A stretch of 64,000 bases of DNA from assembly GCF_053078305.1 (NCBI RefSeq), contig NZ_CP166879.1; one strand, 5' to 3'. The notes below the pieces were generated by a model. That model was given only the letters and a program-made list of their open reading frames with translations. It did no database searches and was not told the DNA's origin. Positions 1-56,010 of this stretch are shown piece after piece (position 1 is the stretch's first letter; each line of letters begins with the position of its first letter). The position numbers and the translations under genes were made by a program.

Positions 1-1
1 A

Positions 2-370: not shown

Positions 371-384
371 AACAAGGATTAGTT

Positions 385-2548: not shown

Positions 2549-2576
2549 CGCTCATCATCCACAGGAGAACTGTAGT

Positions 2577-2852
2577 ATGAATAATGCACTGGGACTGGTT
2601 GAAACAAAAGGGTTAGTTGGCGCGATTGAAGCCGCAGACGCCATGGTTAAGTCCGCCAATGTACAACTGGTTGGTTATGAAAAAATCGGCTCGGGGCTGG
2701 TGACCGTCATGGTTCGCGGCGACGTCGGTGCTGTTAAAGCCGCCGTTGACGCCGGTAGCGCCGCGGCGAGCGCGGTTGGCGAGGTGAAATCCTGCCATGT
2801 AATTCCGCGTCCGCACAGTGACGTCGAGGCTATTTTACCGCATTCAGCATAA
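2577..2852 (+). CDS. pduJ: Microcompartment shell protein (BMC-H)
   Basis: ATG at 2577 preceded by AGGAGA; [29 protein letters not shown] is a classic BMC domain; the ORF track's TTG start at 2520 is an upstream extension. Confidence 0.85.
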
Positions 2853-2873
2853 AACATTGTACAGGAGCACAGC

Positions 2874-4443: not shown

Positions 4444-4446
4444 ACC

Positions 4447-4722
4447 ATGCATCTGGCTCGGGTCACCGGCGCTGTGGTATCCACGCAAAAAACCCCCTCA
4501 TTGGTGGGAAAAAAACTTCTGCTGGTACGTCGGGTCAGCGCCGACGGCGAACTTCCGGCAGATCCATTACACGGCGATGAGGTTGCCGTTGATTCTGTCG
4601 GGGCAGGTGTTGGTGAGCTGGTCTTACTCAGCAGCGGCTCCAGCGCCAGACAGGTATTTTCTGGTCCTAATGAGGCTATCGATCTGGCGGTGGTCGGCAT
4701 TGTCGACACGCTTTCGCGATAA
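4447..4722 (+). CDS. pduN: Microcompartment vertex protein (EutN/CcmL family)
   Basis: 91 aa; [15 protein letters not shown]... typical BMC-V pentamer protein. Confidence 0.8.
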
Positions 4723-4733
4723 GGACATGAGCT

Positions 4734-7126: not shown

Positions 7127-7136
7127 TGAGGCCGCG

Positions 7137-8249
7137 ATGAAGACATTTTCCCTGCAAACCCGTTTATTCAGCGGTCCTGGAAGTCTGAAAATGCTGGACC
7201 GCTTTACGAACAAACATATCTGGATTATCTGTGACGGTTTCCTCTCGCGTTCACCGTTGATTGACACCTTACGTAGTTCGTTACCAGGCAACAATCGCAT
7301 CAGCATTTTTAGCGAGATAACACCGGATCCGACAATCCAAACCGTGGCGCGCGGTATTGCACAGATGCAATCTCTACGTCCTGATGTGGTAATCGGTTTT
7401 GGCGGCGGCTCGGCGCTGGATGCGGCAAAAGCGATTGTCTGGTTCAGTCGCCAGTCTGGCATAGAAATTGAAACCTGTGTTGCCATCCCTACCACCAGCG
7501 GCACAGGCTCAGAAGTTACCAGTGCCTGCGTCATTAGCGATCCAGAGAAAGGTATTAAATACCCTTTATTTAACAATGCGCTATATCCCAACATGGCTAT
7601 TCTCGACCCGACGCTGGTGGTTAGTGTACCGCCGAACATCACCGCTAATACCGGAATGGATGTGCTAACTCACGCGCTGGAAGCATATGTTTCGCCGCAC
7701 GCAAGCGACTTCACTGACGCTCTGGCAGAAAAAGCAGCACAAATCGTCTTCCAGTATTTGTCTGTTGCGGTACAAAAAGGCGATTGTCTGGCGACACGAG
7801 GAAAAATGCATAACGCTTCGACACTCGCCGGCATGGCCTTCAGCCAGGCGGGGCTTGGCCTTAACCATGCTATTGCCCATCAACTCGGTGGACAGTTTCA
7901 CCTGCCGCACGGACTGGCGAACGCACTATTACTCAGTGCAGTCATTCGTTTCAATGCACATGATTCGCGGGCAGCAAAACGCTACGCCCGGTTGGCTAAA
8001 ATTTGCCATCTATGTCCCCCCGACGCTAATGACACAGTCTGTCTGGATGCACTCATCCATCATATTGAAGAACTTAAGAAGTGCTGTGAAATGCCTGGAC
8101 TGTCGGAAGCACTGAAACAGGATAAGCAAAACTGGTCACAACGGATCCCGGCGATGGTTGACGCTGCCCTGGCGGACGTCACCCTGAAAACAAATCCGAG
8201 AATCGCTGATGCCAGCTCCATCCAGGAGTTACTTGAGGAGTTGCTATGA
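7137..8249 (+). CDS. pduQ: 1-propanol dehydrogenase (iron-containing alcohol dehydrogenase)
   Basis: 370 aa; Fe-ADH motifs (GGGSALD, HAIAHQLGG). Confidence 0.9.
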   Translation: MKTFSLQTRLFSGPGSLKMLDRFTNKHIWIICDGFLSRSPLIDTLRSSLPGNNRISIFSEITPDPTIQTVARGIAQMQSLRPDVVIGFGGGSALDAAKAIVWFSRQSGIEIETCVAIPTTSGTGSEVTSACVISDPEKGIKYPLFNNALYPNMAILDPTLVVSVPPNITANTGMDVLTHALEAYVSPHASDFTDALAEKAAQIVFQYLSVAVQKGDCLATRGKMHNASTLAGMAFSQAGLGLNHAIAHQLGGQFHLPHGLANALLLSAVIRFNAHDSRAAKRYARLAKICHLCPPDANDTVCLDALIHHIEELKKCCEMPGLSEALKQDKQNWSQRIPAMVDAALADVTLKTNPRIADASSIQELLEELL

Positions 8250-9601
8250 ATGTCGCGCTGAATGCAGAGACTGCTGATTACGATGCGCAAACCATTCGTG
8301 AGCGAGTGCGTGCAGCCGGTGTGGTCGGTGCCGGAGGCGCTGGTTTCCCGACACATGTCAAACTGCAGGCTCAGGTGGATATTTTTCTGGTCAACGCTGC
8401 AGAATGTGAACCAATGCTAAAAGTTGACCAGCAGTTAATGGCTCTGCAAGCCAGGCGTCTGATTCGCGGAGTACTGTATGGAATGAAAGCAACAGGCGCC
8501 AGTGAAGGCATTATTGCACTGAAAGAAAAATACCAACAAGCAATCGCCGCATTAACGCCATTTCTACCTTCCACTATCAGGCTGCATATATTACCTGACG
8601 TCTACCCGGTGGGCGACGAAGTATTAACTATCTGGATGGCGACGGGTCGTCGTGTGCCTCCTGCCGCGCTTCCTGTCAGCATTGGGGTCGTTGTTAATAA
8701 CGTTCAGACTGTACTTAATATCGCCCGCGCCGTCGAACAGCAGTATGCGGTTACTCGTCGGACGCTGACCATTAATGGCGCGGTAGCAAAGCCAATAACG
8801 CTGACCGTACCGATTGGGATCTCGTTACGTGAAGTGCTGGCGCTGGCGGGAGGCGCTACCGTGGAAGATCCCGGTTTCATTAGCGGTGGCCCGATGATGG
8901 GGGCGTTGATCGGTTCACTGGACAGTCCGGTAACCAAGACTACTGGCGGCCTGTTAGTGTTACCCAAATCTCACCCGCTGATCCAACGACGTCTACAGGA
9001 CGAACGTACCGTACTTACGGTGGCGAAAACTGTCTGTGAGCAGTGCCGATTGTGTACCGATCTCTGTCCGCGTCACTTAATTGGTCACGAATTATCACCT
9101 CACCTGTTGGTACGTACTGTCAATTATCAACAGGTGGCCTCGCCACAACTTTTACTCAGCGCCTTGACCTGTTCAGAATGTAATGTCTGCGCCAGCATAG
9201 CCTGCCCGGTTGGAATCTCACCCATGCGCATTAATCGCATGCTCAAGCGCGAACTGCGTGCGCAAAACCTTCACTATGAAGGACCACTCAAACCGGTCGA
9301 TAAGATGGCGAAATACCGTCTTATCCCGGTGCAGCGACTGATAGCACGCCTGGGCTTATCCCCATGGTATCAGGCAGCACCATTCGATGCAGCCGAACCA
9401 CAACCGGAAAGAGTCACGCTTTTATTGCACCAGCATATCGGTGCAACTACCCTGCCCTGCGTGCAAAAAGGCGAACACGTGGTTCGGGGACAGCGTGTGG
9501 CTGATGTTCAGCAAGGCACGTTAGGCGCGCCCATTCACACCAGTATTGACGGCACGGTCTGTAACGTCACAGAACACTCCATCACGGTGGTAAGAGGTTA
9601 A
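8246..9601 (+). CDS. pduS: Cobalamin reductase (RnfC-like flavoprotein with 4Fe-4S clusters)
   Basis: 451 aa; two CxxCxxCxxxCP ferredoxin motifs; overlaps pduQ stop. Confidence 0.85.
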
Positions 9602-9603
9602 CC

Positions 9604-10158
9604 ATGTCTCAGGCAATAGGTATTTTAGAACTCACCTGTATCGCCAGAGGGATGGAAACTGGCGATGCCATGTTGAAAAGTGCGAATGTCAGTCTACTGG
9701 TCAGTAAGACGATTTGTCCGGGTAAGTTCCTGCTCATTCTGGGCGGTGAGGTCAGTGCAGTCCAGCAGGCAATCGAAACAGGAGCCTCTCTGGCCGGTGA
9801 AATGTTAGTTGACAGTCTGGTGCTACCCAACATCCATGCCAGCATCCTGCCAGCAATCAGCGGGCTGAATAGCGTGGTTCAGCGTCAGTCGGTGGGGATT
9901 GTTGAAACCTGGAGCGTGGCTGCCTGCATCAGCGCTGCAGACCGAGCCATTAAGACATCCAATGTAACGCTGGTCCGCGTCCATATGGCATTCGGCATTG
10001 GCGGTAAATGCTACATGGTGGTCGCAGGGGATATCTCCGACATCAACAATGCGGTTGCTGTTGCCAGCGAAAGTGCAGGTGAGAAAGGTCTCCTGGTTTA
10101 TCGTTCGGTTATTCCACGCCCGCATGAAGCCGTGTGGCACCAGATAGTGGAGGGTTGA
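9604..10158 (+). CDS. pduT: Tandem-domain microcompartment shell protein (BMC-T)
   Basis: 184 aa with two BMC domains. Confidence 0.85.
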
Positions 10159-10508
10159 TGGAAATACAAAATACTACAGAACGACGGATCCAGGAATATG
10201 TCCCTGGTAAACAGATCACACTGGCGCATCTGATAGCTAATCCAGGTAAAGATCTGTTTAAAAAGCTGGGACTGCCAGACACTATTTCAGCTATTGGTAT
10301 CCTGACCATCACGCCGGGAGAAGCTTCCATTATTACCTGTGACATTGCGACAAAATCCGGTGCAGTAGAAATTGGCTTTCTTGATCGGTTTACCGGTGCA
10401 GTTGTCCTGACCGGCGATGTTTCTGCCGTTGAGTACGCACTGAAACAGGTCACCAGAACGCTGAGCGAGATGATGCATTTTAGCGTCTGCCCAATAACAC
10501 GGACTTAA
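10158..10508 (+). CDS. pduU: Microcompartment shell protein
   Basis: ATG at 10158 overlaps the pduT stop by 1 nt (TGATG); [19 protein letters not shown]... as in PduU; ORF-track start at 10134 is an extension. Confidence 0.8.
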
Positions 10509-10512
10509 CGCA

Positions 10513-12146
<1,634 letters not shown>

Positions 12147-24770: not shown

Positions 24771-25034
24771 CTATTTGATTTTGCTTAAAATATTATTGAC
24801 TATCGGTATTACAGAACTAACCAATTGCTCTTCCTCAACTGTATACAAAAGCAATTCGATCTCATTCTCCGCATTAAATAACATTGTATGGAGCCACTTT
24901 TCCTCAACAGCAACAATTTGGCTTTCCGCAGCATAAATTTCTGATTGAATACTTTGTACCGTTATTTTCCCTTCAAGAAAGTTTTTACAAGAGTGTTGTA
25001 ACCTCTCGATCACCTCAGGATAAATCCAACTCAT
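24771..25034 (-). CDS. cdiI: CDI immunity protein
   Basis: 87-aa ORF whose ATG overlaps the cdiA stop (ATGA); AGGAG 6 nt upstream. Confidence 0.7.
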
Positions 25035-28000
25035 TGCCCACTCCTGCGAAGAATAGTAACAATAATATTACTGTTATTTTCAGTGACTACACCTACGTCA
25101 CCACTCCAATAAGTCGTTCTAGTTACGCCATTAACGACACTATTTTGAGGAGTTCCTTCTTTGATAACACTTTCAACCATATTCGGCGTTATATTTCTCC
25201 CTGGGCCAACTGTGCCGGCTGGAGAACCTAAACCAGATGGCTGCATTCTATCAACAGCATGTTGTGAATACAAACGATGACCTATTTGTGCATATTGTCG
25301 CCCATCTACTGTAACCTTTCGATAATTTTGCCAAGAGTCCCAAGGTAACTTTTCAGAACTATTAGGTACGTTTTCTGATGAGGTTTTCTCATTACGTTGC
25401 TCTATTGATTCATTATTCCTGGCGTTCTCCTCATCCTGCGGCTCCCATCCCCCCGGTGTTCCAGCATCTGCGCCACCAAGCTCAGCTTTCTCCTTGTCCG
25501 TAGCGCTCGCTACGTCTTTGCCCAGATTCGGCTGTTTGTTTTCGTCTGTATTGTCGCCATTCAGCACATGCCCCGGCCCCCGGGCACCATCGCGACTCGG
25601 ATCACGTACAGCACACTGTTCCCGTGAGCCTTCACAACCACCACCGGTATCCCAGCTATTATCATTCCCGGTATCCTTACTGGCATTACCTGTAGCACCA
25701 GCTATTGCTGCTGCCGTATTAGCTGCTGTTTCAGTGGCTATCACGTTCAGCATATTGTTTTCAGCCGAGTTCCTGCCTGCCTGTGCACCCGTACCGGCAG
25801 ACGTCGTACTGTTGCCGGCAAGCCCGCCCGCAATCCCTGAGGCAATGGTGGCCAGCATGCTGATTTGCTGACGTTCCTGTTCACTCAGGCTATCGGTACG
25901 ACCACCGTAGTAGTTATCAATGATATACCGGGCTGCAAGTTCACCACTGAATGCCCCTGCAGCACCGGAAGCCGCATTGTTTCCACCCAGTTGTGCAGCA
26001 AGCGCTCCCCAGACTGCGTGAGCCATCAGGTTTGCTTCCCGGTTATCGCCGGTGGCCTGTTTTATAAGCTGTGCCACTGCCGGATTCAGACCGCCAGCCA
26101 GTACCTGCCCCGGATTCCCTGCATTCAGTCCGCCCAGCACACCCGTGATGGCCTGTACCACCATCTGCGGCGTACTGCCCGTACCGTAGCCTTTCATGAC
26201 CTCTCTGTATTCCGGGGTCTCCCGCAACTGTGCATCGCTCATGCCAGGATGCTCTTTCCTGGCTGCTTTCATCGCTTCAGTTTCGCCATACGTCATGACG
26301 ATGTTACTCATCTGACCGCTAATCTGGCTGATAACCTGCGCTTCCTGAAGACGCTTCTGCTCTTTCTCCCTGTCAAATATCGGTGCAATGCTGCCGTTGG
26401 CATTTTCCGGGTCCCGGCTGAGCCCGGCAATACCCTGCATCTGACTCTCCTTATTACGGATAATGAGATTTCCGCCGCTGATGGCGGATGACGTGGTACC
26501 TTCAGCATGTCCACTGCTGCCGGACATACCGGTAAGTGCGTTCGCCGCACCGGCTATTGCATTTGAAGCCACCATCTGGCTGGCTGACATCCCTGAGCCA
26601 CCCGATAAACTGATTCCGGTATGGCTGGCTTTATAGTCTGCCTGGTTATGGATATCCGACCAGCCCAGCGTGCCGGTACTGAGGCTGTTTTTGTCATCCG
26701 TTGCCGTGGACGCAATTACCGCACCATTGAGCTGAGTGTGATTCCCCACAGTGACATCAAACCCGTCTTTTCCGGCGTAGATACCACTCTGTTCCCGGAC
26801 AGAATCGTAATTGCTTTTGATTTTGTCCTGACTGATGCTGGCATAGCCGCTGCCGGACATTGAGCCAAACGTGAAGCTGCCACCTGCAGCCACGCTGTTT
26901 TGTCTGCTGTCGTAACGGTCACTGTCCTGAAGACTCGAAATGGTCAGGTTATTACCCACATCCGCTGTGACTTTCTCACCACTGACCTGAGCCCCCGACA
27001 GGGTGGTATCACGTCCGCTTGTGAGGGAGACATTTTTACCCGCATCCAGCGTGGTTTCGGTCCAGGTCGTGCTGCTGCCTTTCTCACTGCCTTTGGAGCC
27101 GTTAATGCTGGCGAAGATACTGAGGCCCCCGCCATTGGTTCCACCACCAAAGCTGACGCCCACGCCGCCACCTTTGCTGCTGTTCTTCCCGGTGGTCTGT
27201 CGGGTGTCAGCGGCGGCAGCCAGCAGAATATCGTTCTGTGCATTCAGACTGGTGTCATTGCCGGACTTAATCTGGCTCCCGGTAATGAGAATATCGCCGC
27301 TGTTGTTATGGTCCTTATTTTTCCCCGTGGCAGTGACGGAGACATTGTTACCGGCGCTGAGGGTTGAGCCGGAGACGATATCGTGCTGATATTTCGTCTC
27401 AGACTTCGACTGCTGATGGTTGAGCGAAATGCTCACGCCGATACCATTATTCTGGTCAGCACTCTGTTGCTGCAGTCCGTGGTTAACACCGGCCTGTACA
27501 CCGGACAGAACCGCCTGTGTTCCTTTCAGTGCCGCCAGACGGCTGTCGCTGGTTTCTTTCGACTCCCGGGCCATGGTTGCAGCATTATTGATGGCACTGC
27601 CCACCGTGCCGGAAAGGGCAACCGTCAGCCCGCTTTTCTTCTGCTCAAATTTTTCGTCCACAGTACGACGGTCATGCCCCGGGTCAACCACCACACTGTC
27701 ACCGGTAATGCTGATATCCCGGTTCGCAATCACATCCGAACCGCTGATATGTACCTGTTTGCCCGCGGTAATACTGACATTACCGGCAGTGGAGCCGATG
27801 GTACTGGCACTCTGACTCTGCGTTGTCCCGGCTTCGCGGCGGTCGTGCGTTGTCTTACTGCTGCCAGTGGTGAAGCCAGTACCGCCGGTACCCGTCAGAC
27901 CGGATTTCTTCGTTTCCTTAAAGCGCCAGGACGTATCTGTACTGGTGGCAGCAAGAACATCAACATGGTTACCTGCCGCCAGTGACACATCCCGGTCAGC

Positions 28001-31000
28001 CACCACATCCGAACCCTGTACCGTCAGGTTATCACCGGCGTTAACGGTCACGCGATTCCCCGACAGCAGAGAGCCCTTCTCACGGGTGACGCTGTCTTCC
28101 GTGATGGTCCGGGTGGTCTGATGGCTGAGGAGACGGTTGCGGGTTTCCCCTGATTCACTGTAGTGATAATCACTTTCCGTGGCAGTACCCAGTACGATGT
28201 CATGACCGGCATTCACACGGATATCGCCCTTTGCCGTTACAGCAGTCGCAACTGAGGTGATATCCCGTCCGGCAGTAACCGTGATGTCACCGCCACTGGT
28301 CATGTCTGTTCCCTGCTGCCGGACCGAATCATGAACCGTCTTCATGCTGAAAGTGCTGTCGTGGTCACCTGCGCCTGTGGACTCCGCAGCCATGTTCACA
28401 TCCCGTCCGGCGCGGATATCCATACTGTTTTCAGCCGTAATACCGGCAGCCTGGCTGTTCACATCACGACCGGCGGAAAGCATCAGACTGTTCCCGGCAG
28501 TGACCGTGGGGGCCACGGCATGAGTTTCATACCACCCGGACCCGCCATAGCGACGACGTTCGCCGGCCTGTATCGCGTTCATGTTCAGGTCATTACCGGC
28601 GGACAGTAACACGCTGTCACCGGCAGAAACGGCGACACCGGTGATACTGATATCCCCGGCTGCGCCCATAAACAGTGAGTCCGTTGCCCTGACAGCAGCC
28701 AGCGGACCGGTATCCGTTCCGCTGAAATGGTTATATCCGTTGTTCATCGCCCACTGTTCTGTACGGGTGAGGTTACTGATGTTTCCGGTGGCGCTTTCCA
28801 GGTATACGGTTTTACCGCTGATGACTGAGCTGATATTGCCGATATCCCCGATGGCCTTCAGGTTCAGTGCACCACCGGCGTTTATCAGTCCGGCATTCAG
28901 GTTGTCGATACTACCTGTGCTGTCGAGCAGGAGGTCATTCTGTGCGTTGATGCTGCCGCCGCTGTTGGTAATATTGCCACCCGCAAGCTGCACGTTGTTC
29001 CCGCTGATAACGCTGCCATTATGAAGGGTGATATCTTCCGGAGACAGATACAGTTTCGGAACCATGACTGTCTGTCCGTTGATGGTGACGGACTCCCACC
29101 ACAGTATGCTTCTGGTCAGTTGTGCAACCTGCCCGGCGGTCAGCGACACACCAAAGGTCAGTCCGAGCGCTTTCTGTTGTGCTGCCGCGCTGTCCATCAG
29201 GTATTTCATCTGCGCCAGGTCAGAGCCTGTGCCGTTGATATAACGTGAGCCCGTCTGGTTCAGTATGACGTTACTGACATACCGGGTATCAAAAGCCGCA
29301 TCCCCCAGAAAGCGGTAATCTTTTTCCGGTTTCAGGCCAAGACGGTCAAGAATGTACGACGAGCCCAGAAACTGTTTTTCATCGGTATATGCCGGGTCTG
29401 TTTCTCGTGGTGCCTGTCCGGGTTGCATCCTGAGCAGGTCATACAGTCCGGCAAACAGACTGCTGTCCACCTTTCCGAGACCATCCAGTTTCGGGTTCAC
29501 CGTAATCAGATACGGACTGTCCGGGGCCGTGGACGGGACAAAATAACCATTGTTACCGGATGGCAGGGGATAGCTGCTTACACTTGCCCCGGACAGCGAC
29601 AGCGCACCCGGGATATCCTTCAGCGTATCCGGCAGCGCGTCATTCCATACAGGGCCGGTTATCCCGGTACCGCTTTCATTCAGCAGGGCTTCACCGCTCC
29701 CCCCCTGACTGACCGTCGGTGGTGTCAGGGAGTTCAGCGAAGGCACCGTTATCGTGTTACCTGCACCACCTGCCCGGGGCATGACAGTGGTATTACCGGT
29801 GTCAGTGGCAAAGCTGGCAGACACATCACCGGCAGCGCTGATAACCGCACGGTACTGACCTGCCGGAGAGGTGCCACTGGCTTCTGTCGCATCCGGCGAG
29901 ACCTGGCGATAGACCCTGTACCATGGCTCAGTAAACCACGCTTTGGGGAGTGAGCCGGAGGCAAGCCGCCAGACCGTTTCCTTTCCGGTGGTTCCCTCCT
30001 GCCAGCCCTGATTGTTCAGTGTGTCGCCACTCAGGGTCATACTGCCACCGGCGAGAATAAACGATGCCTCATTATCCAGTCGTCCTGCACGGATATGCAT
30101 ATCAGCACCGCCGGATATTCTGGCAGCATAGCCGGAGGCACTGACTGTCACCGTATCCGTATCGCCCGTACGGATACGGTATTCATCAGGTACCGTGGCA
30201 CCCTTACCCCAGTACACGGCCAGATATTCCACACCATCATGCCGGACAACACCCCACCACCGGTTATTTTCCGGAACCGGTGAAATCACCCCGTGACTGC
30301 TTCCAGGAATGACCTCATGGCTGGCCGAAATGGCATCCCATGAATTCAGCAGATGCGCCGTATTCATGGTGATATCGCCACGTGTGGTTTCAATATTACC
30401 GGAACGGTTAATGATTTCGCTGTTTGCCGTACCGCTGCTGTCCTTCTGTACCCACAGACTGTTGCCGGCCAGGATATCACCATGCTGGTTATGCAGACGG
30501 TCTGTAAACAGCTTCAGGTTATTCCCCGCATAAATCAGCGCACTGTTCAGCAGGGTACCGGCCACATTCATTGTCAGACTGCCTGCCGTGCCGGTAAAAC
30601 CACTGATGGTGATATCACTCCGGCTGTTCAGACTCACATCGCCACCGGCCTGAAGTGAACCCGGTGCGTTAAGGAAAAGACGCTGTGCGCTGAAAACACT
30701 GTTGTCTTTACCGGCAGTCAGCGTTCCATTGTTGGTGAATGCCTCTCCGGCACTGAGCATCATGGCATCACCCTGCATCACACCGCCGTTGGTGACGGCG
30801 TTCTGCGACGTGACGGAAAGGGTTTTCCCTGCGGCCAGGGTACCATGATTCGTGAGGGCAGCAATCAGTTTCAGTGTGACATCACCGGTGGCCACCACCT
30901 GGCCCTGACCACTGAAGTCCTGAACGTCAAGCAGCAGGTTGCCTGCACTGTACAGCCGCCCTGTACCATTTTGCAGCAGTGAACTGCCCTTGACGCCAAG

Positions 31001-34000
31001 CCATGAGGTTCCCAGCAGGGTACCGCTGTTGCTGAATGTGTGGTAATTCACCAGCAGGTCCGCACCCTGAAGCGTACCGGTATTATTCAGCGTGGTTCCT
31101 TTAACGTCGGCACTGCCGGTGGCAAGTACGCGTCCGCCGTTGACAGTATTCACCACATCCAGCAGCAGGGTGGCAGCCTGTACCAGTCCGCTGCCGGTGT
31201 TCGCCAGCACCTGCGCCGTCAGCGTGAGGTTACTGCCGGAGAGGATTTTGCCGTCGTTCTTCAGACGGTCAGTGGCGTTCAGGGAAACCCCGCCACCACC
31301 CTGTATCGTGCCCTGGTTACTCAGGGTCGCTGTACTGACATTCAGTGCATTCCGGCTCATCAGAACACCACCGGAACGGTTGTTCACGCCACCGGAGGCT
31401 GTCAGCGTCAGCGTTTCGCCCTGCAGATGCCCGCCGTTTGTGAGTTGTCCTGCCGTGATGGTGGTGGCATTTCCCTGTAATTGCCCGTCGTTTGTGACAC
31501 TGTCTGCCTTCAGCGTCAGCACACCTGCACTGAGCAGTTTTCCGCTCGCGTGATTGTTCAGCGTCTGATTCACCGTGAGCGTGAGAGCATCCACACCGGT
31601 GATGTCACCCGCACTGGTCAGTGAGTTCGCCTTCAGTGTCAGATTTTTTGCAATCCATTGTCCGCTGTTGCTTAAATTCAGTGCACTGAGCGCCATTTCA
31701 CCGTTCGAGGTGACTTTGCTGCCTGCTGTGCTGACAAGCTCACCCGTCAGACGTGCAGTCAGGCTGTCAGCCGCCTGGATCGCCCCGCTGTTTGCCAGAC
31801 TGTCTGCGGTGATCAGCACCCGTTTGCCCTGCCAGTATCCGGAACTGGTAATACTGCCTGCGGTGATTGTCAGATCGCCGCTGGTCAGCAATGAACCTCC
31901 GTTATTCATCAGCGCAGGTTGAGGGGATGTCATACGGGCGGCAAGCGTCAGTGTGGCGACCCCGGTGAGCGTGCCACTGTTGGTGACACTGTTCTGACGA
32001 ATCGTGACATGGTTACCCTGGACAGTGCCGCTGTTATCCAGTGAATTTCCATCAAGGGAGAGCGTGCCGACCGAAAGCAGACTGCCCCGGTTGTCAGTGG
32101 TGGCTGCTTTCAGCGTGGTGTCACCCTGGCTCATGATATCGCCGGTACTGGTCAACTGACCGGTTGCCGAAGCAGTAAGGTTACCGGTTGCCAGCACGGA
32201 ACCACTGTTCGCCCATCTGTCCGCCTGCACGGTGAGATTCTGTCCCTGCGTGGTCCCTGCGGTATTCAGTGTTTTACCCCGGAGGGAGAGGTCGCCCGCC
32301 GTCAGCCAGCGTCCGTGACGCCCCTGTGAGAGGGTGTCGCCTGCAAGCGCCAGTGCAGCGGCGCCCTGCAACAGGCCATCGCCATCCAGCGTGGTCGCCC
32401 TGACGTTCAGCGTGTCAGCGGTGATTTTACCCGGATTGCTGAGGGAGGCAGTGTTTAACGTTAAATCATTATCACCGGTGATAAGCCCGCTGTTGCGGAT
32501 GTCCGGTATATCCAGCGTCAGGTCTGCAGCACTGTACAGCGTGCCGTTCTGCTGATTATCAAGCCTCTGTGTGTTAACGGTGAGTGAGGCCTCCCCCTGC
32601 AACAGACCGCTGTTGGTCAGGGTCTGTGACTGTGTATTCAGGGCGGAACCAACAAGTACGCCGCTGCTGGTCAGTTCCGGCGCACTGAGGCTGAGCGACG
32701 GGGCACTGCTTTTCCCGCTGTGGGTGAGCTTTTCACTGGCGTTCAGGGTGAGGATGTCTCTGGCAGCCTGTGTTCCGTCAAGCTGTGCGTTCTGCACATC
32801 CACGCTGACACTGTTGCCCTGCGTCTGCGCAGTGGCCGTGGTCTTCAGACTGTTGCCTTTTACAGACACCGTGCTGCCCGCACTGGTTTCACCCGCCAGC
32901 GTGGAAGACGCGCTGTTCAGCATGAGGTTACCGTCACTGTGCGTGACTGATTTTTCTGTGGTGGTCAGTGTGTCTGCAGAAGCCACAAGTTCCTTTGCCC
33001 CGGAGAGGGTACCGCTGTTGTTTATCTGCGTGGCACTGAGCGTCAGCACGTCATCGCTGACGAGTCTGCCGCGGTTTTCAAGTGTACCGCTGACGGTAAC
33101 GAGGGCTCTGTCTTTTGCTCCGGCATCACCGGACAGTGTGGCATTGCGGGCGCTGATATCGAGTGTGCTACAACTTTTAATACTGCCGGTGCTGGTCAGG
33201 TCAGTGGCGGTGACTTTCAGGCCGTTCCCCTGGACGGCACCGGTATTACTGAATGTCCCGGTTTTCACCGTGGCATCGCGCCCGGCAACCAGTGTCCCGC
33301 CGTTGTTCAGGCTGCCGGAACTGACGGTGAGTGTTTTCCCGGCAACGCTGCGGCCTTTCAGTGTGGTATCATCGGTGGTGGTAAGGGTGACATTTTCAGC
33401 TGCATTCACGTTCCCGGAAGTCTGGTTCAGGTGCTGTGCACTGAGCATGGCGTTCTGTCCGGCAGTCAGTTCACCACCGTTCTGTACAATCTGCCCGGAT
33501 GAAGACAGCACCAGATTTTTATCCGTCACCAGACGGGACTGATTCAGTGTCAGTCCCGTTGTCCCGGTAACGCTGAGATTTCCTCCGGCTTTGTTATCCC
33601 CTGAAAGTGAGACATCCGTTCCGGTTACGGTGGTATTGCCGCCGGCAAGGCTGTTCTTCAGGACCAGTTTTCCGGAACTGCTCAGTATGATATCGCCCTC
33701 GCGGGCATAAAGGTTACCAAGATTAACCCCGACACCACTTTCAGTGGAGGTCAGATGAATACGCCTGGCGTACATTCCACCGAGCGCGCCGGTATCAACA
33801 GCAACTTTCGGCACATCACCTTCGCCCTTCAGGGCACTGACACGACCATCTGCAGTTACCCGGTTAGCGCCTGCAGTGACAGTTAAATCCTTCGCATGAA
33901 GCGCGGCATTCACTTCCGTTGCACGGGCAATAATGGATACGGCATCGCTCCGGGTGCCGTCCAGGCCCGCGCCATTGATGGTGATACTGCCTTCAGTCAC

Positions 34001-34525
34001 CTCCAGCGCCTGCAGGCTGCCGTCGGCATTCATCACAGGTTTGCCTGTGGTGAGCGTCGCGTGCGGCGTGTTGATAAAGCCACAGCCGTCACAGGTGATA
34101 CCATACGGGTTGGCAACCATCACATTCGCCGCTTTGCCGGCCACTTCCGTATAGCCCTGCAGCAGTGAACGCTTACCGCCGGTCACTTCGTTGATGATAC
34201 CCTTCGCTTCCCCGCCCGCTTTCAGGTTCGGGTTATTCTGTATCAGTCCACCAAGCTGCGTCGGATTAAGCTTACCGGTGGCATTATTGAGAATCAGCCC
34301 TTCCTTCCCGACGTTGTAATCCGTAAACCGGTTATGCGAAATCCCGGCCCCGTCCGGCGTGGCAATGTTCACGACCGGCACACCATTTGCCGCTTTATCC
34401 ATTCCGGCCCCGTTTTGTGGGGTGATGACGGCCCCCACAGCCGGTAACAACGGCTGCCCGGCGATAATTGTACTGATAAGGTAACTCAGCAGGCGGTAAG
34501 TGAAGCGAACAGGAGGCTGATGCAT
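25031..34525 (-). CDS. cdiA: Contact-dependent growth inhibition exoprotein CdiA (two-partner secretion, 3164 aa)
   Basis: N-terminal extended signal peptide and TPS domain; long Gly/Asn/Thr/Ser-rich filamentous repeat region; pretoxin region ending GRNSAENN (AENN in place of VENN) followed by a ~230-aa CT. Confidence 0.95.
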
Positions 34526-34537
34526 GGTAATAATCCC

Positions 34538-36310
34538 TTAAAACGCGACGGCAACGCGCCAGTAAACCGTGAGATGGTCAGGGGCAAGCCAGTCCGGGTA
34601 AACAAGAGGCAGTCCGGCGGTGAACGAACCGGAAACATGACCACTGGTGGTGCTGAGCCCGGCAGCAGCACCCCACAGCGTGCCGGACGAGTACGGGTCA
34701 TCGCTGTCAGAGTGCAGCCAGCCGCCGTCCAGTGCAGTCACTGCACGGACTGTCCCCACATATGGCAGGGAGAACAGAGACCAGGACAGCTCATTTCGCA
34801 GATAACCGCCGTTATTACCGGAGATATACTGCTCCTTAAAGCCACGCACTGAACTCTCACCCCCGAGGCTCAGTTGTTCCACACCATGAAGACGGTCCGG
34901 TGACCACTGGGCATAAGCGCTGGTCAGCCACCACACCCTGTCCGTGACGGGGCGCTGAAAACTGGCGCTTAATGACCATTTCCGGAACTGATTTACGGGC
35001 AGGTCTCCCCTTTTCCCGTGGTCGCTTTCTGCGCCGAACCAGGGCATCCCCCGTGTGAATACCGGATTCAGTGTTCCGACACCCCCCAGAAACTTGTGTG
35101 TGTGATTCAGCCCGACAGAAAATGAAGTGAGTTTACGGCTGCTGCCCTGAAGCAGAACATCATCCAGATAATTGTGAATAATGCGGTGCTGCAGACCTCC
35201 GGTCAGTGCTGTCTTCATGTCCCCGTTACGGAACAGGACATGCGACAGTCCCAGCCGGTGAGTCTGCAGGTCTCCCGTGGAACGCCACCGCCAGCCCCGG
35301 TTATCAATGGTGCTGAGGTAGTCACTCCATGAATACGTGTAATCCACCAGGGTATAGCCATACGGCAGACTGACACCGGCGGCAAAATTCCTCGCATCAT
35401 GTGACACCGAAAAGTCACTGCTCCGTCCCCCGCTGACAAACCAGTTGTCAGCCAGCCCCAGCGGATTATTAAAGGAAAGGACACCATTTAACTGCCCCGT
35501 ACCGGTATTCTTCTGTCCGCTGTTGTCGATGCCCACGCTCCCTGTGACAGGCCATCCCGGCGATGCCGTCAGTGTCACCACCGACCATCCCTCACGGTCA
35601 CCGGGCGATATTTCAATCTGTACCGGCTCCGTACGCAGACGGTTAATCTGCTCCATCCCCTGCTCAATATCCCGCAGGTTCAGAACCGCCCCCTCCATTC
35701 CCGGGAAAACCATCTTCAGGGTGCGGGCAGGAAGGTCAGCGCCTTCCGCCCGGATTTGCTGCAGCCTGCCTTCCATGACCGTTATGTGCAGTACGCCCCC
35801 TGAAAGGTCCTGCTCTGTCAGAAAGGCCCGGCTGGTGATATATCCCCGACGTATATAGCCGTCCGTCACGGCATCCGTGACCGTGGTCAGCCCCGTGATA
35901 TTCAGACACTGATTCACCCACGGTGCCACCAGTCTGTCGGTTTCTGCAGACGTCAGTCGGGTGGCCCCACTGACAACAATGCGTGACACCGTAAAGCAGG
36001 GACCTTCAGTACCGGCAGACATTTCCGGAGACGGCGTGATGGTCAGCGGCGCACTGCGCTCCAGCGCATCACGCTGACGCTGGTTTTCATCCAGCAACTG
36101 CTGCTGTTGCTGCTGAATTGCACTGCGGTCACCCGGAGACAGCATGGCTGCCGGAGACGAAAATGCGGGGATAAAAAAACCAGAAAAAACGGAGAGGGAG
36201 AGATAGCATATCCACGGAGAACCGCGCCGGAACATATCACAACAGGGGACAGACAACGCACGGGATAAAAGAGACGTTTTCGTCAGAATGTTGTTCTGCC
36301 GGCGCTGCAT
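34538..36310 (-). CDS. cdiB: Two-partner secretion outer-membrane transporter CdiB
   Basis: 590-aa ORF directly upstream of cdiA; TpsB/FhaC-like beta-barrel C-terminus; alternative start at 36235 gives a conventional signal peptide. Confidence 0.9.
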   Translation of the reverse strand: MQRRQNNILTKTSLLSRALSVPCCDMFRRGSPWICYLSLSVFSGFFIPAFSSPAAMLSPGDRSAIQQQQQQLLDENQRQRDALERSAPLTITPSPEMSAGTEGPCFTVSRIVVSGATRLTSAETDRLVAPWVNQCLNITGLTTVTDAVTDGYIRRGYITSRAFLTEQDLSGGVLHITVMEGRLQQIRAEGADLPARTLKMVFPGMEGAVLNLRDIEQGMEQINRLRTEPVQIEISPGDREGWSVVTLTASPGWPVTGSVGIDNSGQKNTGTGQLNGVLSFNNPLGLADNWFVSGGRSSDFSVSHDARNFAAGVSLPYGYTLVDYTYSWSDYLSTIDNRGWRWRSTGDLQTHRLGLSHVLFRNGDMKTALTGGLQHRIIHNYLDDVLLQGSSRKLTSFSVGLNHTHKFLGGVGTLNPVFTRGMPWFGAESDHGKRGDLPVNQFRKWSLSASFQRPVTDRVWWLTSAYAQWSPDRLHGVEQLSLGGESSVRGFKEQYISGNNGGYLRNELSWSLFSLPYVGTVRAVTALDGGWLHSDSDDPYSSGTLWGAAAGLSTTSGHVSGSFTAGLPLVYPDWLAPDHLTVYWRVAVAF

Positions 36311-49890: not shown

Positions 49891-50621
49891 TGAGTCGTTC
49901 AGTTCTGGTTACTGGTGCCAGCAAAGGCATTGGTCGCGCCATCGCCTGCCAACTGGCGGCAGACGGCTTTAACATTGGCGTTCACTATCACCGTGACGCC
50001 ACAGGCGCTCAGGAAACGCTGAATGCCATTGTCGCCAACGGGGGTAACGGGCGTTTGCTCAGTTTCGACGTCGCAAACCGCGAACAGTGTCGGGAAGTGC
50101 TGGAGCATGAGATCGCGCAACACGGTGCCTGGTACGGCGTGGTCAGTAACGCCGGGATCGCCCGCGATGCCGCTTTTCCGGCTTTAAGCGATGACGACTG
50201 GGATGCGGTGATCCACACCAATCTCGACAGTTTCTACAACGTCATTCAGCCGTGCATTATGCCAATGATCGGCGCGCGCCAGGGTGGGCGCATCATCACG
50301 CTGTCCTCGGTTTCCGGCGTAATGGGCAATCGCGGCCAGGTGAATTACAGCGCTGCCAAAGCCGGAATTATCGGCGCAACAAAAGCGCTGGCTATCGAAC
50401 TCGCAAAGCGCAAAATCACCGTCAATTGCATCGCGCCAGGGCTTATTGATACCGGGATGATCGAAATGGAAGAGAGCGCTCTGAAAGAGGCAATGTCGAT
50501 GATCCCCATGAAACGTATGGGCCAGGCGGAAGAAGTTGCCGGGCTTGCCAGTTATTTAATGTCTGATATTGCGGGTTACGTCACCCGCCAGGTTATTTCC
50601 ATCAACGGAGGGATGTTATGA
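49890..50621 (+). CDS. 3-oxoacyl-ACP reductase (SDR family, FabG-like)
   Basis: 243 aa; TGASKGIGRA Rossmann motif and YSAAK catalytic motif. Confidence 0.85.
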   Translation: MSRSVLVTGASKGIGRAIACQLAADGFNIGVHYHRDATGAQETLNAIVANGGNGRLLSFDVANREQCREVLEHEIAQHGAWYGVVSNAGIARDAAFPALSDDDWDAVIHTNLDSFYNVIQPCIMPMIGARQGGRIITLSSVSGVMGNRGQVNYSAAKAGIIGATKALAIELAKRKITVNCIAPGLIDTGMIEMEESALKEAMSMIPMKRMGQAEEVAGLASYLMSDIAGYVTRQVISINGGML

Positions 50622-51847
50622 CACGTCGCGTAGTGATTACAGGAATGGGTGGCGTGACTGCCTTTGGTGAAAACTGGCAGGACGTTTCTGCACGCTTACT
50701 GGCGTATGAAAATGCGGTGCGCAAAATGCCGGAGTGGCAGGTCTACGACGGGCTGCACACCCTGCTTGGCGCGCCTGTTGATGATTTCACGCTACCGGAG
50801 CACTACACCCGCAAGCGTATCCGTGCGATGGGCCGCGTGTCGCAAATGTCGACCCGTGCCAGCGAGCTGGCGTTAGAGCAGGCAGGGTTGATTGGCGATC
50901 CGATATTAACCAGCGGCGAAACGGGCATTGCGTACGGTTCATCGACCGGCAGTACCGGCCCGGTAAGCGAGTTCGCCACCATGCTGACGGAAAAGCACAC
51001 CAATAACATCACTGGCACCACCTATGTGCAGATGATGCCGCACACCACCGCCGTTAATACTGGCCTCTTTTTCGGCCTGCGCGGGCGGGTGATCCCAACC
51101 TCCAGCGCCTGTACTTCCGGCAGCCAGGCAATCGGTTATGCGTGGGAAGCCATTCGCCACGGTTATCAAACGGTGATGGTTGCTGGTGGTGCCGAAGAGT
51201 TATGTCCTTCAGAAGCAGCGGTATTTGATACGCTTTTCGCCACCAGCCAGCACAATGATGCGCCGAAAACCACACCTTCACCGTTCGATGAAAACCGCGA
51301 CGGGCTGGTGATTGGTGAAGGCGCAGGTACGCTCATTCTCGAAGAACTGGAGCACGCCAAAGCGCGCGGCGCGACCATTTACGGTGAAATCGTCGGCTTT
51401 GCGACTAACTGCGACGCGGCACATATTACCCAGCCGCAGCGCGAAACCATGCAGTATTGTATGGAGCAATCGCTGAAAATCGCCGGGTTAAGCGCACAAG
51501 ATATCGGCTATATTTCAGCGCATGGTACGGCGACCGATCGCGGTGATATGGCAGAAAGTCTGGCGACAGCAACCATTTACGGTGATAATGTGCCGCTCTC
51601 CTCGCTGAAAAGTTATTTTGGTCATACGCTTGGTGCCTGTGGCGCGCTCGAAGCCTGGATGAGTCTGCAAATGATGCGCGAAGGTTGGTTTGCGCCTACG
51701 CTAAACCTGAATAAACCAGACCCGAACTGTGGCGCGCTGGATTACATCATGCATGAAGCCCGAAAGGTTGATTGTGAGTTTTTGCAGAGTAACAACTTTG
51801 CCTTTGGCGGCATTAATACATCCATCATCATTAAGCGCTGGCCCTGA
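50618..51847 (+). CDS. Beta-ketoacyl-ACP synthase II-like
   Basis: 409 aa; KS active-site region SSACTSGS; last gene of the cluster, followed by a hairpin. Confidence 0.85.
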   Translation: MTRRVVITGMGGVTAFGENWQDVSARLLAYENAVRKMPEWQVYDGLHTLLGAPVDDFTLPEHYTRKRIRAMGRVSQMSTRASELALEQAGLIGDPILTSGETGIAYGSSTGSTGPVSEFATMLTEKHTNNITGTTYVQMMPHTTAVNTGLFFGLRGRVIPTSSACTSGSQAIGYAWEAIRHGYQTVMVAGGAEELCPSEAAVFDTLFATSQHNDAPKTTPSPFDENRDGLVIGEGAGTLILEELEHAKARGATIYGEIVGFATNCDAAHITQPQRETMQYCMEQSLKIAGLSAQDIGYISAHGTATDRGDMAESLATATIYGDNVPLSSLKSYFGHTLGACGALEAWMSLQMMREGWFAPTLNLNKPDPNCGALDYIMHEARKVDCEFLQSNNFAFGGINTSIIIKRWP

Positions 51848-52729
51848 GTTATACAACCACATGGACATCCCATGTGGTGATTCTTCAAAAAATCTGAATC
51901 AATGAATATGAACCTCATCCACATTCAACCATTCTTTTGTTTACCATCTGGTTGTCGCCCCCCCTCCAAAAAGCAAATTCTCTTACGCATACTGGAGAGT
52001 ATTCCGTATAAAGATTCAGCTGGCAAAACTTTATCAGTCTGTAAAAACTAACGGAAGAGTCGATATTTCTCCCGTCCATCACCGGATGATTGTTGCAATA
52101 ACCCATAGCATCAGAGACTGAACAGCAGTTTTTAAAGCAACGTATTGCTCTGATGTATCAGGCTGGGCAACCCGAAAAAAAACTTTCCACCCGACATTGT
52201 CCGCTAGCACTTATCACCCGCCAGGTCTGTTGCAGTAAATCCACCAGTTGTGAACATGCTTCATCACCTGTCACACTGGCTCGCGGATGGCAAATGCTCG
52301 TCTGGCTGAGCAGCAACAGGCATCGTATTGTTGCTCCTCCATGTAGTTGTTCCCGCAACCAGCGTAATACCAGCGGCGATGATGGACTGGTCGTGTGATT
52401 ACGCTCAGTAATACGTTCATAAAAGGAAGTACAGAATGCATGAATCTGTTGCCCGTTGATATTTCCTTCTGCCGAATGGAGTGTGAAGTGGACTGCCAGC
52501 AGATGCGTCCAGTGGTCCACCGCCTGCTGAACAAAACGCCGGATGTCTCCCTGCTCTGAAAATAACGCTTCGGTTATTTGCACGAAATACTACTCCTTCA
52601 GACTCTGTTAAGTTTTGTTTGTTAAATCGGTGCAGACCTGCAGGAAAGCACGCAAGCACCGGCACAGTACGATATAAACATCCGGTACCGGGGATACGAA
52701 TGGAATGACGAATACGCCAGAAAAGGGAT

Positions 52730-54081
52730 AACAACCTTCCTCAGAATGGTGAAATCATTCGCTATGGCGAAGTTATCGGTTACGCGGTACGCGATGTCGC
52801 CAAAGGCAGCTGGATCGACGAATCCACGGTCACGCTGCCGAAAGCGCCGCCGCTGGAAGATTACACCTTTGAAGGTTACCGCAACGCCGACGGCAGCGTG
52901 GGCACCAAAAACCTGTTGGGTATTACCACCAGCGTGCACTGCATGGCAGACGTTGTGAACTACGTGGTTAAAATTATCGAACGCAACCTGCTGCCGAAAT
53001 ACCCGAGCATCGACGGAGTGGTCGACTTGAACCACCTCTACGGCTGTGGCGTAGCGATTAATGCACCGACCGCCGTGGTGCCAATTCACACCATCCATAA
53101 TATTGCGCTGAACCCAAACTTCGGTGGCGAAGTGATGGTGGTGGGTCTCGGTTGCGAAAAGCTACAGCCATAGCGCCTGCAGAAAGGTACGGAAGATGTG
53201 CAGAGCATCCCGGTCGACAGAGCCAGCATCGTACGCCTACAGGACGAACAGCACGTTGGCTTTAAATCAATGGTCGACGATATCCTGCAGGTTGCCGCAC
53301 ACCATCTGGAAAAACTCAACCAGGCCAGCGCGTCACCTGCCCGGCCTCCGAGCTGGTGGTGGGCATGCACTGCGGTGGCAGCGACGCGTTCTCCGGCGTT
53401 ACCGCTAACCCCGCTGTCGGCTACGCCTCTGACCTGCTGGTGCGCTGCGGCGCAACGGTGATGTTCTCCGAAGTCACTGATGTACACGACGCCATTCATC
53501 TGTTAACGCCGCTCGCCATCAATGAAGAAGTTGGCAGGTGTCTGCTCGAAGAGATGGCCTGATACGATAACTATCCCGATATGGGCAAAACCGACCGCAG
53601 CGCCAACCCTTCGCCGGGCAACAAAAAGGGCGGCCTCGCCAACGTGGTAAAGAAGGCACTCGGCTCCATTGCTAAATCGGGTAAAACCGCAATTGTTGAA
53701 GTGCTGTCGCCCGGTCAACACCCGACTAAACGCGGATTAATTTACGCCGCGACGCCAGCCAGCGATTTTATCTGTGGCACGCAACAGGTGGCTTCGGGTA
53801 TCACCGTGCAAGTGTTTACGACCGGCCGTGGTACGCCGTACGGCCTGATGGCGGTACCCGTCATTAAAATGGCGACCCGCACCGGGCAGGCGAACCGCTG
53901 GTTTGATTTAATGGATATTAACGCGGGCACTATCGCTACCGGCGAAGAGACTATTGAAGAGGTGGGCTGGAAGTTGTTCCACTTTATTCTCGACGTCGCC
54001 AGCGGGAAGAAGAAAACCTTCTCGGATCAATGGGGATTGCATAACCAGCTGGCAGTGTTTAACCCGGCACCGGTGGTCTGA
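52730..54081 (+). pseudogene. garD: Galactarate dehydratase, 5'-truncated with frameshifts and an internal TGA
   Basis: Translation matches GarD only from about residue 60 ([18 protein letters not shown]...); frame breaks near 53170 and 53320; TGG to TGA at EEMA*YDNY (about 53560). Confidence 0.8.
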
Positions 54082-54143
54082 TATTCTCTTCATACATCAA
54101 GTTGTATTATGCCCGATAACGCTTGTTTATCGGGCATAGTGAA

Positions 54144-54715
54144 TCACAGCGAAGACGCGAGCTCCCCGACCAGTATCACTTCAACCCCAGCCTTTCGCAG
54201 GCCTTCCAGACTATCCGCAGGAATGCCTTCATCAACAATGATCATGTCGATACGTTGAGTATCAATGATCTTATGTAAACTGGAACGATTGAACTTACTG
54301 GAATCGGTGACCACGATGATCCGTTCCGCAACTTCGCACATCCGACGGTTTAAACGGGCTTCATCTTCATTATGCGTGCTGATGCCGCACTCCAGATCGA
54401 TCGCATCTACACCAAGAAACAGCATATCGAAGTGGTAATTTTGCAGCGATTGCTCAGCCTGATCACCGTAAAAAGATTGCGACTGACGGTGTCAGTGCTA
54501 TCGCAGATCAACGCGCCACCATAGGCACACACAGCGATCCCCTGCTTTTCCAGAAACGCCAGATCGTTGCGGATCGTCACAGTAGATACGCCATACAATG
54601 CCGACAGATCGTTAACCTGCACACTCCCTTGCTGTCGCAGACGCTGAATGATCTGTTCTCGTCGCTCGCTGGTGCCTGTCACTCGCTTCTCACCTGAAGC
54701 GTCGGTATTACTCAT
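54144..54715 (-). pseudogene. agaR: DeoR-family repressor AgaR with internal deletion and frameshift
   Basis: N-terminal 70 residues ([30 protein letters not shown]...) and C-terminal about 90 residues (...[12 protein letters not shown]...) lie in different frames; roughly 90 central codons missing. Confidence 0.8.
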
Positions 54716-54963
54716 AGTAAGTCCTTTCGTAAAACTTTCGTTTCATTTCGTTTTGCCTATTAACGCCTTTCTATTAAGCAAATGCAAGCCCACACTGCCC
54801 ATTGGCGCAAGCTACTCTCGTTTCAGTGACTTTCATTATGTTTCTTTTGTGAATCAGATCAGAAAACCCGTACCTTTCGTTTTGTTTTTATCTCACCATG
54901 ATGCAGTATCAACTGAAACAAAACGAAAGATTAATATCGCAGTAATCGGAACTGGAGAGGAAA

Positions 54964-55587
54964 GTGAAACATCTGACAGAAATGGTGAGGCAGCACAAAG
55001 CGGGCAAAACAAATGGGATTTATGCCGTTTGTTCCGCACATCCGCTGGTGCTGGAAGCTGCAATCCGCTACGCCAGTGCAAACCAAACGCCGTTACTGAT
55101 TGAAGCAACCTCCAATCAGGTGGACCAGTTCAGCGGTTATACCGGAATGACGCCCGCCGATTTTCGCAGCTTTGTTTGTCAGCTCGCCGACTCGTTGAAT
55201 TTCCCGCAGGATGCGCTGATGCTGGGTGGTGATCATCTGCGACCAAAATCGCTGGTCGATAGCGAAACGCTTATCGTGGTGTACATCTCCAGCCACCCTT
55301 ACACGCGCCAGTACGACCTGGGTCTGCTGACAGAACTGCGCCACGATCGTCAGGCAATGCGCGTGATCGCAATTGCGGTGGAAACGGATGCCATCATCGA
55401 AGCGGGCCCGCATATCCTGTTGCCTCCTTCCCGTTCGTTTATCGACATGGAACAGGCGTTCTGCTTCCTGATGTACGCCCAGGTCTTTGTGCTGGCTCAG
55501 TCGATTCATGTTGGCAATACGCCAGATCTCCCCTCTGCCAGCGGCACGGTTAACCGTGTGGTGCAAGGTGTGATTATTCATCCATAG
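54964..55587 (+). pseudogene. kbaZ: Deletion fusion of kbaZ 5' portion to the 3' end of a SIS-domain isomerase (agaS-like)
   Basis: First about 95 codons match KbaZ ([37 protein letters not shown]...GGDHL), then switches to a SIS-domain C-terminus (...[17 protein letters not shown]); intervening genes absent. Confidence 0.7.
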
Positions 55588-55596
55588 CGGGCTTAA

Positions 55597-55926
<330 letters not shown>

Positions 55927-56010
55927 TGCGCATAGCGTGCAGGTGATCATCGGAGCGCAGGTACAGAGCGTCAAAACCGGCATTGAAGCCTTAATTTAAC
56001 AGGAGGAGTG

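Follow-up and report, generated by a model that had tools for sequence, protein, structure and literature searches.

The garD-like sequence that lies downstream of the aryl-polyene (APE) biosynthetic cluster in a 64,000-nucleotide stretch of contig NZ_CP166879.1 (NCBI RefSeq assembly GCF_053078305.1; the whole stretch is hereafter called the window) is, at a probability that we put at roughly 0.85, a dead second copy of the galactarate dehydratase gene in a mobile Escherichia coli genomic island and not the cell's own garD. A sequence-only reading of the window had described a 5'-truncated and disrupted garD; the truncation and the disruption stand, but the implied loss of the organism's own garD does not, as an intact second garD is present in the carrier strain GW-AmxH19. 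Further, we consider it somewhat better than an even chance that the degraded block that opens with this relic (garD'; 52738-59416) is a datable fossil of an unsampled Enterobacter-like chromosome, carried by an integrative element, of which about 1.6 kb was overwritten by gar-aga DNA of the recipient. The pseudogene itself is already known from RefSeq annotation in about 190 complete genomes, including Nissle 1917. We found no literature description of the relic or of its mosaic origin, and the latter adds a small novelty that can help to reconstruct the history of the island. The features on which the analysis rests are collected in Table 1.

Extent and decay of the garD relic

We aligned garD' with the intact garD of E. 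coli BL21 (523 codons) and with four further island copies. GarD homology begins abruptly at 52738 (+/- 3), which corresponds to about codon 60 of the 523 codons of the E. coli gene, and runs to the stop at 54081; in the BL21 alignment, codons 1 to ~59 are missing. This agrees well with the sequence-only reading, which had placed the start of the similarity near 52730 at about residue 60 and had noted that neither a start codon nor a promoter was left: a promoter and terminator scan called no plus-strand sigma-70-like promoter upstream of garD' and no terminator. The alignment to the garP-garD intergenic region that the same reading had proposed was run and, like one to garP, revealed no counterpart upstream of garD', the only matches being chance ones (E >= 0.4). 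That the sequence is nevertheless derived from garD is clear from its translation, which, when repaired to 447 aa, matched GarD proteins at 79-87% identity and 99-100% query coverage (E = 1e-268 to 1e-244); the listed protein matches all contain PF20629 and PF04295, and most also contain PF08666. What a functional GarD has, namely an uninterrupted ORF (open reading frame) of ~523 codons that includes the N-terminal SAF-type domain, is not found in garD', in which the longest in-frame GarD piece is a 166-aa C-terminal ORF (53581-54081).

Within the remaining part of the gene, the reported change of TGG to TGA was confirmed at the codon for Trp-351. The reading had also counted at least two frame breaks; the disruption is real, but the count is not, because the window copy has one frameshift (the 1-bp deletion at 53323/53324), and the second supposed break is a stop codon in frame, where TAG has replaced GAG. 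The three lesions differ in their distribution from the in-frame 48-bp deletion, which, among the aligned copies, is limited to the window and strain SY038; only two records are at least 99% identical to the window allele. We considered whether the disruptions could be assembly or sequencing artefacts in a gene that is intact past the truncation. Although the source appears to belong to a Shiga toxin-producing E. coli (STEC) lineage known at draft level and the frameshift is a single 1-bp deletion, the chance of this is practically negligible. The TAG, the 1-bp deletion, and the TGA recur in the independent complete genomes of SY038, D8, and Z0117EC0036 and are thus not sequencing errors; a divergent copy of the type found in strain H32 likewise has the TGA and the 5' junction; and the 48-bp deletion is found in SY038 as well. 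In agreement with this, the Prokaryotic Genome Annotation Pipeline (PGAP) gives the feature in D8, AHB29, SY038, Z0117EC0036, and Nissle 1917 the label "frameshifted; internal stop; incomplete; missing N-terminus". At least 80% of 51500-54400 is found in 189 complete genomes. The intact frame that resequencing might have restored is effectively excluded by lesions common to so many independent complete assemblies.

The pattern of substitution in garD' points to a gene that was once functional and then decayed. Compared with BL21 garD over 444 codons, the synonymous divergence (dS) is 0.68 and the nonsynonymous divergence (dN) is 0.066; the resulting dN/dS of 0.10 implies that most of the divergence arose under purifying selection in another lineage. 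The invariant residues, however, have not been kept: using the D8 copy, which is free of the 48-bp deletion, we found that, of the 356 residues on which 27 intact enterobacterial orthologues all agree, the relic is changed at 27, compared with 0-4 in leave-one-out controls. This points to a prolonged absence of constraint. Overall, garD' and the resident E. coli garD (UxaA/GarD family, PF08666/PF20629/PF04295) are homologous over codons ~60-523, at 88.5% amino acid and 84.5% nucleotide identity, but the resident gene has 523 codons, is intact, and lies beside garPLRK, whereas the relic is without its N terminus, is interrupted three times, and carries the 27 changed residues.

An opposing view is that garD' is the only garD of the genome, inactivated in place by insertion of the APE island, and that the strain is unable to use galactarate. 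It can draw on agaR and kbaZ following garD' in native order and orientation and on the last 0.4 kb of garD', agaR', and kbaZ' being 96.5-98% E. coli-like. We regard it as very improbable for the following reasons. First, a resident garD is divergently adjacent to garP-garL-garR-garK, and the window contains neither garP, garL, garR, or garK on the left nor agaBCDI-yra on the right; upstream of garD' are the APE cluster and an island module, and it is the island module, not the biosynthetic cluster, that is the partner at the junction. Second, a resident garD would be more than ~95% identical to that of E. coli along its whole length, but only 53690-54081 reaches 97-98%, and the 5' 0.95 kb is only ~80% identical. 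Third, in SY038, the same locus is within an island beside thrW-proA. Fourth, in GW-AmxH19, the carrier whose gar locus was inspected, the relic coexists with an intact gene: the island copy is at ~3.06 Mb and a 523-aa garD beside garPLRK at 0.62 Mb, ~2.4 Mb apart. Fifth, the garD match is only 80-90% identical to the window copy in 5,171 of 5,370 complete-genome records; the total number of garD places exceeds that of records by 506, which suggests two copies in carriers, and the two carriers listed (SY038 and Z0117EC0036) show two places each.

Table 1. Features between the end of the aryl-polyene cluster and the right edge of the degraded block (positions in the window)
Feature	Position	Strand	Remarks
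ApeR-type beta-ketoacyl-ACP synthase, last APE gene, intact	50618..51847	+	409-aa ORF; PGAP 'beta-ketoacyl-ACP synthase' after FabG2 and ApeP dehydratase
Spacer after APE cluster, 115 bp	51848..51962	.	Outside island-module homology; no Rfam family matched
Left edge of CP4-57-like island module, remnant	51963..52079	-	UCP030791/ECs1377 intergenic region and first bases of ECs1377-family gene
UCP030791-family 'putative phage-derived' pseudogene	52080..52583	-	Frameshift near 52176/52177
Upstream region of UCP030791 gene	52584..52737	.	Island-module homology ends at 52737, the junction with garD' (comparison with L095)
garD' pseudogene	52738..54081	+	Galactarate dehydratase codons ~60-523, no start codon (BL21 garD alignment)
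Foreign (non-Escherichia) part of garD'	52738..53680	+	72-87% identity per 100-nt window to BL21
In-frame 48-bp deletion (16 codons)	52846..52847	+	Flanked by two GCCGCCGCT direct repeats
Nonsense codon TAG	53171..53173	+	GAG (E221) in intact orthologues; common to window, SY038, D8, Z0117EC0036
1-bp deletion	53323..53324	+	Sole frameshift of window copy; also in SY038, D8, Z0117EC0036
Nonsense codon TGA	53560..53562	+	TGG (W351, E. coli numbering) in intact orthologues; in 5/5 island copies including H32 type
E. coli-like 3' end of garD'	53690..54081	+	97-98% identity per 100-nt window to BL21
Inverted repeat in 62-bp garD-agaR intergenic region	54109..54137	.	prlF-yhaV absent there; read from sequence
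agaR' pseudogene, E. coli-like	54144..54715	-	~0.25 kb deletion; PGAP 'frameshifted'
Chimeric ORF KbaZ(1-96)::AgaS(257-371), 207 aa	54964..55587	+	NCBIfam matches on both halves
kbaY' 5' fragment, foreign	55609..55919	+	PGAP pseudogene; 79.4% to BL21, 83.8% to Enterobacter chuandaensis (closest)
malX' remnant	55918..55998	+	PGAP 'PTS maltose transporter subunit IIBC, missing N-terminus'
MalY/PatB-family C-S lyase, intact	56008..57174	+	TIGR04350, 342.8 bits
Alpha-galactosidase or 'enterotoxin' (PGAP names), intact	57200..59089	+	
rsmI' remnant (16S rRNA C1402 2'-O-methyltransferase), C-terminal 83 codons	59156..59416	-	One internal stop; right block edge

The junction between an island module and garD'

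The sequence-only reading had placed the truncation of garD at the boundary of the biosynthetic cluster and had left the 880 bp between the last ketosynthase gene and garD' to minus-strand ORFs that it could not assign. The former was not borne out, and the gap proved assignable. The true end of the APE cluster is 51847, and garD' does not belong to it, lying 890 bp past the cluster end and behind an oppositely oriented pseudogene; for comparison, the apeA-apeR cluster of CFT073 (c1204-c1186) consists of 18 co-oriented genes in 15.5 kb that are sufficient for APE production (PMC8253772), and these experimentally determined limits leave garD' outside. In a blastn comparison, positions 51963-52737 are 80% identical to a CP4-57-like island module (locus L095, positions 5001-5768), of which the window retains the start of an ECs1377-family gene, a UCP030791-family gene, and 139 bp upstream of the latter. 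Because this homology stops exactly where garD' begins, the truncation is not at the cluster edge: garD is fused, at codon ~60, to the inside of an integrative-element module. More than 3,000 E. coli genomes contain homologues of the module, usually alongside YagK/YfjJ, YfjI, and AlpA-like genes.

The UCP030791-family gene was identified by DNA homology to annotated genomes together with tblastn. The minus-strand ORF at 52158..52583 represents the N-terminal 140 residues of this gene. When the intact 170-aa copy from strain 21AH007 was used as a tblastn query, residues 1-139 were found at 52583-52176 with 84% identity and residues 139-168 in a second frame at 52177-52088 with 67% identity; the similarity therefore extends over ~170 aa, but the frame is interrupted, and PGAP marks the gene as 'frameshifted' in D8, AHB29, and Nissle. 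The family assignment is based on this pairwise similarity and on the PGAP label of the 21AH007 copy. Pfam and NCBIfam hidden Markov models (HMMs) gave no useful match to the small ORFs of 51848-52738, with one weak match to DUF6208 far below threshold, and no ECs1377 match at the protein level is left at the left module edge. We note that, in SY038 (L003, 17446-19862), whose garD' is the nearest relative of the window allele, ISEc43 (IS66 family) lies between the UCP030791 pseudogene and garD'; the window has no such insertion.

Mosaic composition and colinearity with Enterobacter

An identity to E. coli of 85% over the whole gene suggested a uniformly xenologous garD', which was rejected because a sliding-window comparison shows a mosaic. 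Identity to BL21 jumps from 72-87% to 97-98% at ~53650-53690, which marks a recombination breakpoint. The 5' ~0.95 kb is 79.7% identical to E. coli and 80-82% identical to other genera; over the same stretch, other Escherichia species match the resident E. coli allele at 88-92%, and the 5' part of the relic, at ~80%, therefore lies outside the genus. The last ~0.4 kb, on the other hand, reaches 96.5% identity with E. coli, compared with 88-91% for other Escherichia species and ~84% for other genera. The E. coli-like character continues through agaR' and the 5' part of kbaZ' (54162-55255; 96.5-97% to BL21 and 77% to Enterobacter) and is lost again in agaS' and kbaY' (55243-55919), which are 79.5% identical to BL21 and 83.8% identical to Enterobacter, the best match.

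The 62-bp region between garD' and agaR' contains an inverted repeat (Table 1) that may be a bidirectional terminator, although it was not among the calls of the simple terminator scan. A homologous hairpin is present in H32 and in the resident locus of APEC O1, a B2 strain, which is also without prlF-yhaV. The resident gar-aga junction is polymorphic: in APEC O1 (NC_008563.1, 3572036-3574483), garD is directly beside an 825-bp agaR, and in BL21, as in K-12, the prlF-yhaV toxin-antitoxin pair occupies the junction and agaR is 810 bp long with a different 3' end.

The complete degraded block reads garD'-agaR'-kbaZ'::agaS'-kbaY'-malX'-malY-alpha-galactosidase-rsmI' and spans 52738-59416, with garD' at its left edge. 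Here, agaR' matches BL21 in two pieces, at 96.5-97% identity and with a 10-bp overlap, and is intact in H32. The KbaZ::AgaS chimera was left by a deletion that removed the kbaZ 3' end, agaVWEFA, and the agaS 5' end, with a junction at ~55243-55255 in a short microhomology; its kbaZ part is 96.5% and its agaS part 79.5% identical to E. coli. As regards annotation, PGAP treats this ORF in some genomes as intact, under the name 'class II D-tagatose-bisphosphate aldolase non-catalytic subunit' (WP_001350167.1), and splits it in others into two fragments of pseudogenes. The malX gene, of which the window (with its PTS, or phosphotransferase system, annotation) keeps a remnant, is intact in H32, where it is 96% identical in amino acids to the gene after kbaY in Enterobacter soli; malX is directly 3' of kbaY in both E. 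soli and Enterobacter quasihormaechei. The product of 57200..59089 is 90.8% identical in amino acids, and its gene 83% in nucleotides, to the gene located 3' of kbaY in Enterobacter chuandaensis and Enterobacter cloacae, and no NCBIfam HMM matched this protein. RefSeq lists it (WP_001304738.1) as 'enterotoxin' in many E. coli genomes and as alpha-galactosidase in others, and the toxin label looks doubtful. At the right edge, rsmI' corresponds to positions 204-286 of the 287 positions of NF011570 (E = 6e-41), and after it comes an IS66 fragment; rsmI-homologous DNA is found just downstream of garD in genera that have no aga cluster.

Judged by gene order and similarity, 52738-59416 is colinear with a chromosomal region of the Enterobacter type, with truncations at both ends and deletions inside. 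The order garD-agaR-kbaZ-...-agaS-kbaY-malX-(malY)-alpha-galactosidase-rsmI is the same in Enterobacter, with 96% (MalX) and 90.8% (alpha-galactosidase) amino acid identity and 83.8% nucleotide identity for agaS/kbaY; there, however, the genes are intact and no island module lies beside garD. Identity to Enterobacter-like bacteria is 80-86% in the outer parts of the block, and identity to E. coli is 96.5-98% in the middle (~53690-55255). A tblastn search with the UCP030791 and APE proteins found neither an APE cluster nor an island module beside garD in any locus fetched from other genera. Because the nucleotide identity is only 80-86%, no sampled Enterobacter species is the donor. When we compared the surroundings with the model element to see whether a single colinear backbone encloses the block, DNA-level matches were limited to the left side (ShlB/FhaC and UCP030791).

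Related relics, history, and significance

The closest known counterpart of the window copy is the island garD pseudogene beside the APE cluster in Nissle 1917, D8, A0 34/86, and altogether ~190 complete genomes, which has the same junction, gene order, and annotation and is 99.5% identical over 51500-54400. The TAG, the 1-bp deletion, and the TGA are common to both, and the 48-bp deletion is extra in the window (and SY038). Over 39001-64000, however, the window is only 98.2% identical to the Nissle-type genomes, and its island adjoins a divergent pdu operon not seen in complete genomes. A second type of relic is found in H32 (NZ_CM184319.1, 2934993-2942696), in the order IS3 - UCP030791' - 'UxaA family hydrolase' pseudogene - agaR - kbaZ'/kbaY' - malX - malY-like - alpha-galactosidase; this version of the block has diverged by ~3-12% from that of the window. 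It has the same UCP030791'/garD' junction, the TGA at W351, and the breakpoint at 53690 and is 97.4% identical over 53354-54489. It differs in that agaR and malX are intact, its downstream part being less decayed, whereas its garD' is more decayed and has 11-bp and 219-bp deletions. To its left are fucP- and rbsK-type sugar-utilisation genes and no adjacent APE cluster, from which it follows that the block has moved between island contexts.

According to the reading that we favour, illegitimate recombination would have brought a piece of an Enterobacter-like chromosome into an integrative element, or fused the two, and would thereby have cut garD at codon ~60 and also rsmI. The TGA would have arisen early, before the Nissle-type and H32-type copies split. 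The block would have entered E. coli with the island, and ~1.6 kb of it would have been overwritten by homologous recombination from a resident gar-aga locus of the type without prlF-yhaV. The TAG and the 1-bp deletion would then have arisen in the Nissle-type lineage and the 48-bp deletion only in the sub-lineage of the window and SY038. The relic would now be without function, and galactarate would be catabolised via an intact resident garD elsewhere in the genome.

The same mosaic could also have been produced if the block were a duplicate of the gar-aga region of E. coli or another Escherichia, with an ancestral core and outer parts that were later replaced by Enterobacter-like DNA. The core at ~53690-55255 is indeed E. 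coli-like and has the genuine prlF-yhaV-less layout of E. coli (B2), and the 53690 breakpoint is common to all variants, including the H32 type. We nonetheless consider this origin unlikely: the flanks run colinearly into malX, malY-like, alpha-galactosidase, and rsmI genes, an order that is native to Enterobacter and not found at the E. coli locus, and a duplication would have to be combined with two independent imports. A long colinear foreign block as the original and a short core as the patch are simpler.

Several observations weigh against the reading of a captured Enterobacter-like fragment and an inactive second garD. First, the search for a close donor was unsuccessful: a word-indexed search of 5.8 billion proteins returned no intact GarD more than ~87% identical to the relic; a scan of species representatives, which left out Salmonella, several Citrobacter species, and E. 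fergusonii, showed nothing above 87% amino acid or 82% nucleotide identity in the foreign part among the matches listed; and the best nucleotide identities of donor candidates are only 80-86%. Second, for a recent conversion, a divergence of 3-5% between the E. coli-like patch and the resident loci that we compared is high, and the recombination may have had another direction or order, with foreign flanks placed onto an E. coli segment instead of an E. coli patch entering a foreign block. Third, YagK/YfjJ and YfjI on the right of the block have no DNA-level similarity to the intact model element, and a position of the block within a single element backbone would be suggested by the order of gene families alone. 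Fourth, we infer the intact resident garD of the source strain from other carriers and from the near-universality of the gene in E. coli.

With respect to the wider window, the pdu operon (pduG to pduW) at positions 1-12146, directly beside the island, is of a rare and divergent allele: it has only ~76% identity to its counterparts in 5,426 complete E. coli genomes and 99.99% to that of STEC draft genomes such as GCA_001902675.1. The first 21 kb of the window are likewise 99.99% identical to such drafts, which are the closest match; GCA_001902675.1 is a subAB2-3 STEC. Immediately upstream of the APE cluster, 25031-36310 on the minus strand encodes a two-partner secretion pair, composed of a 3,164-aa exoprotein and a ShlB/FhaC-family transporter, which looks like a contact-dependent inhibition or haemagglutinin-type system; a CdiI-family ORF is called near the pair in a matching contig.

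Three consequences follow for the annotation of E. coli genomes. First, garD' should not be scored as a loss of galactarate utilisation, nor should it be drawn as a part or an insertion target of the APE cluster. Second, the 207-aa ORF with a "KbaZ-type" label needs caution, being a KbaZ::AgaS chimera. Third, the same applies to the "enterotoxin" label, which is attached to the orthologue of an Enterobacter chromosomal gene at this position that is elsewhere annotated as alpha-galactosidase. The mosaic is a concrete marker for tracing the cross-genus assembly of a widespread island of extraintestinal pathogenic E. coli (ExPEC), Nissle, and STEC. If our reading of the block is correct, the fossil would record both in which host the backbone of the present APE island was previously found and an ectopic gene conversion between a chromosomal locus and a xenologous relic.

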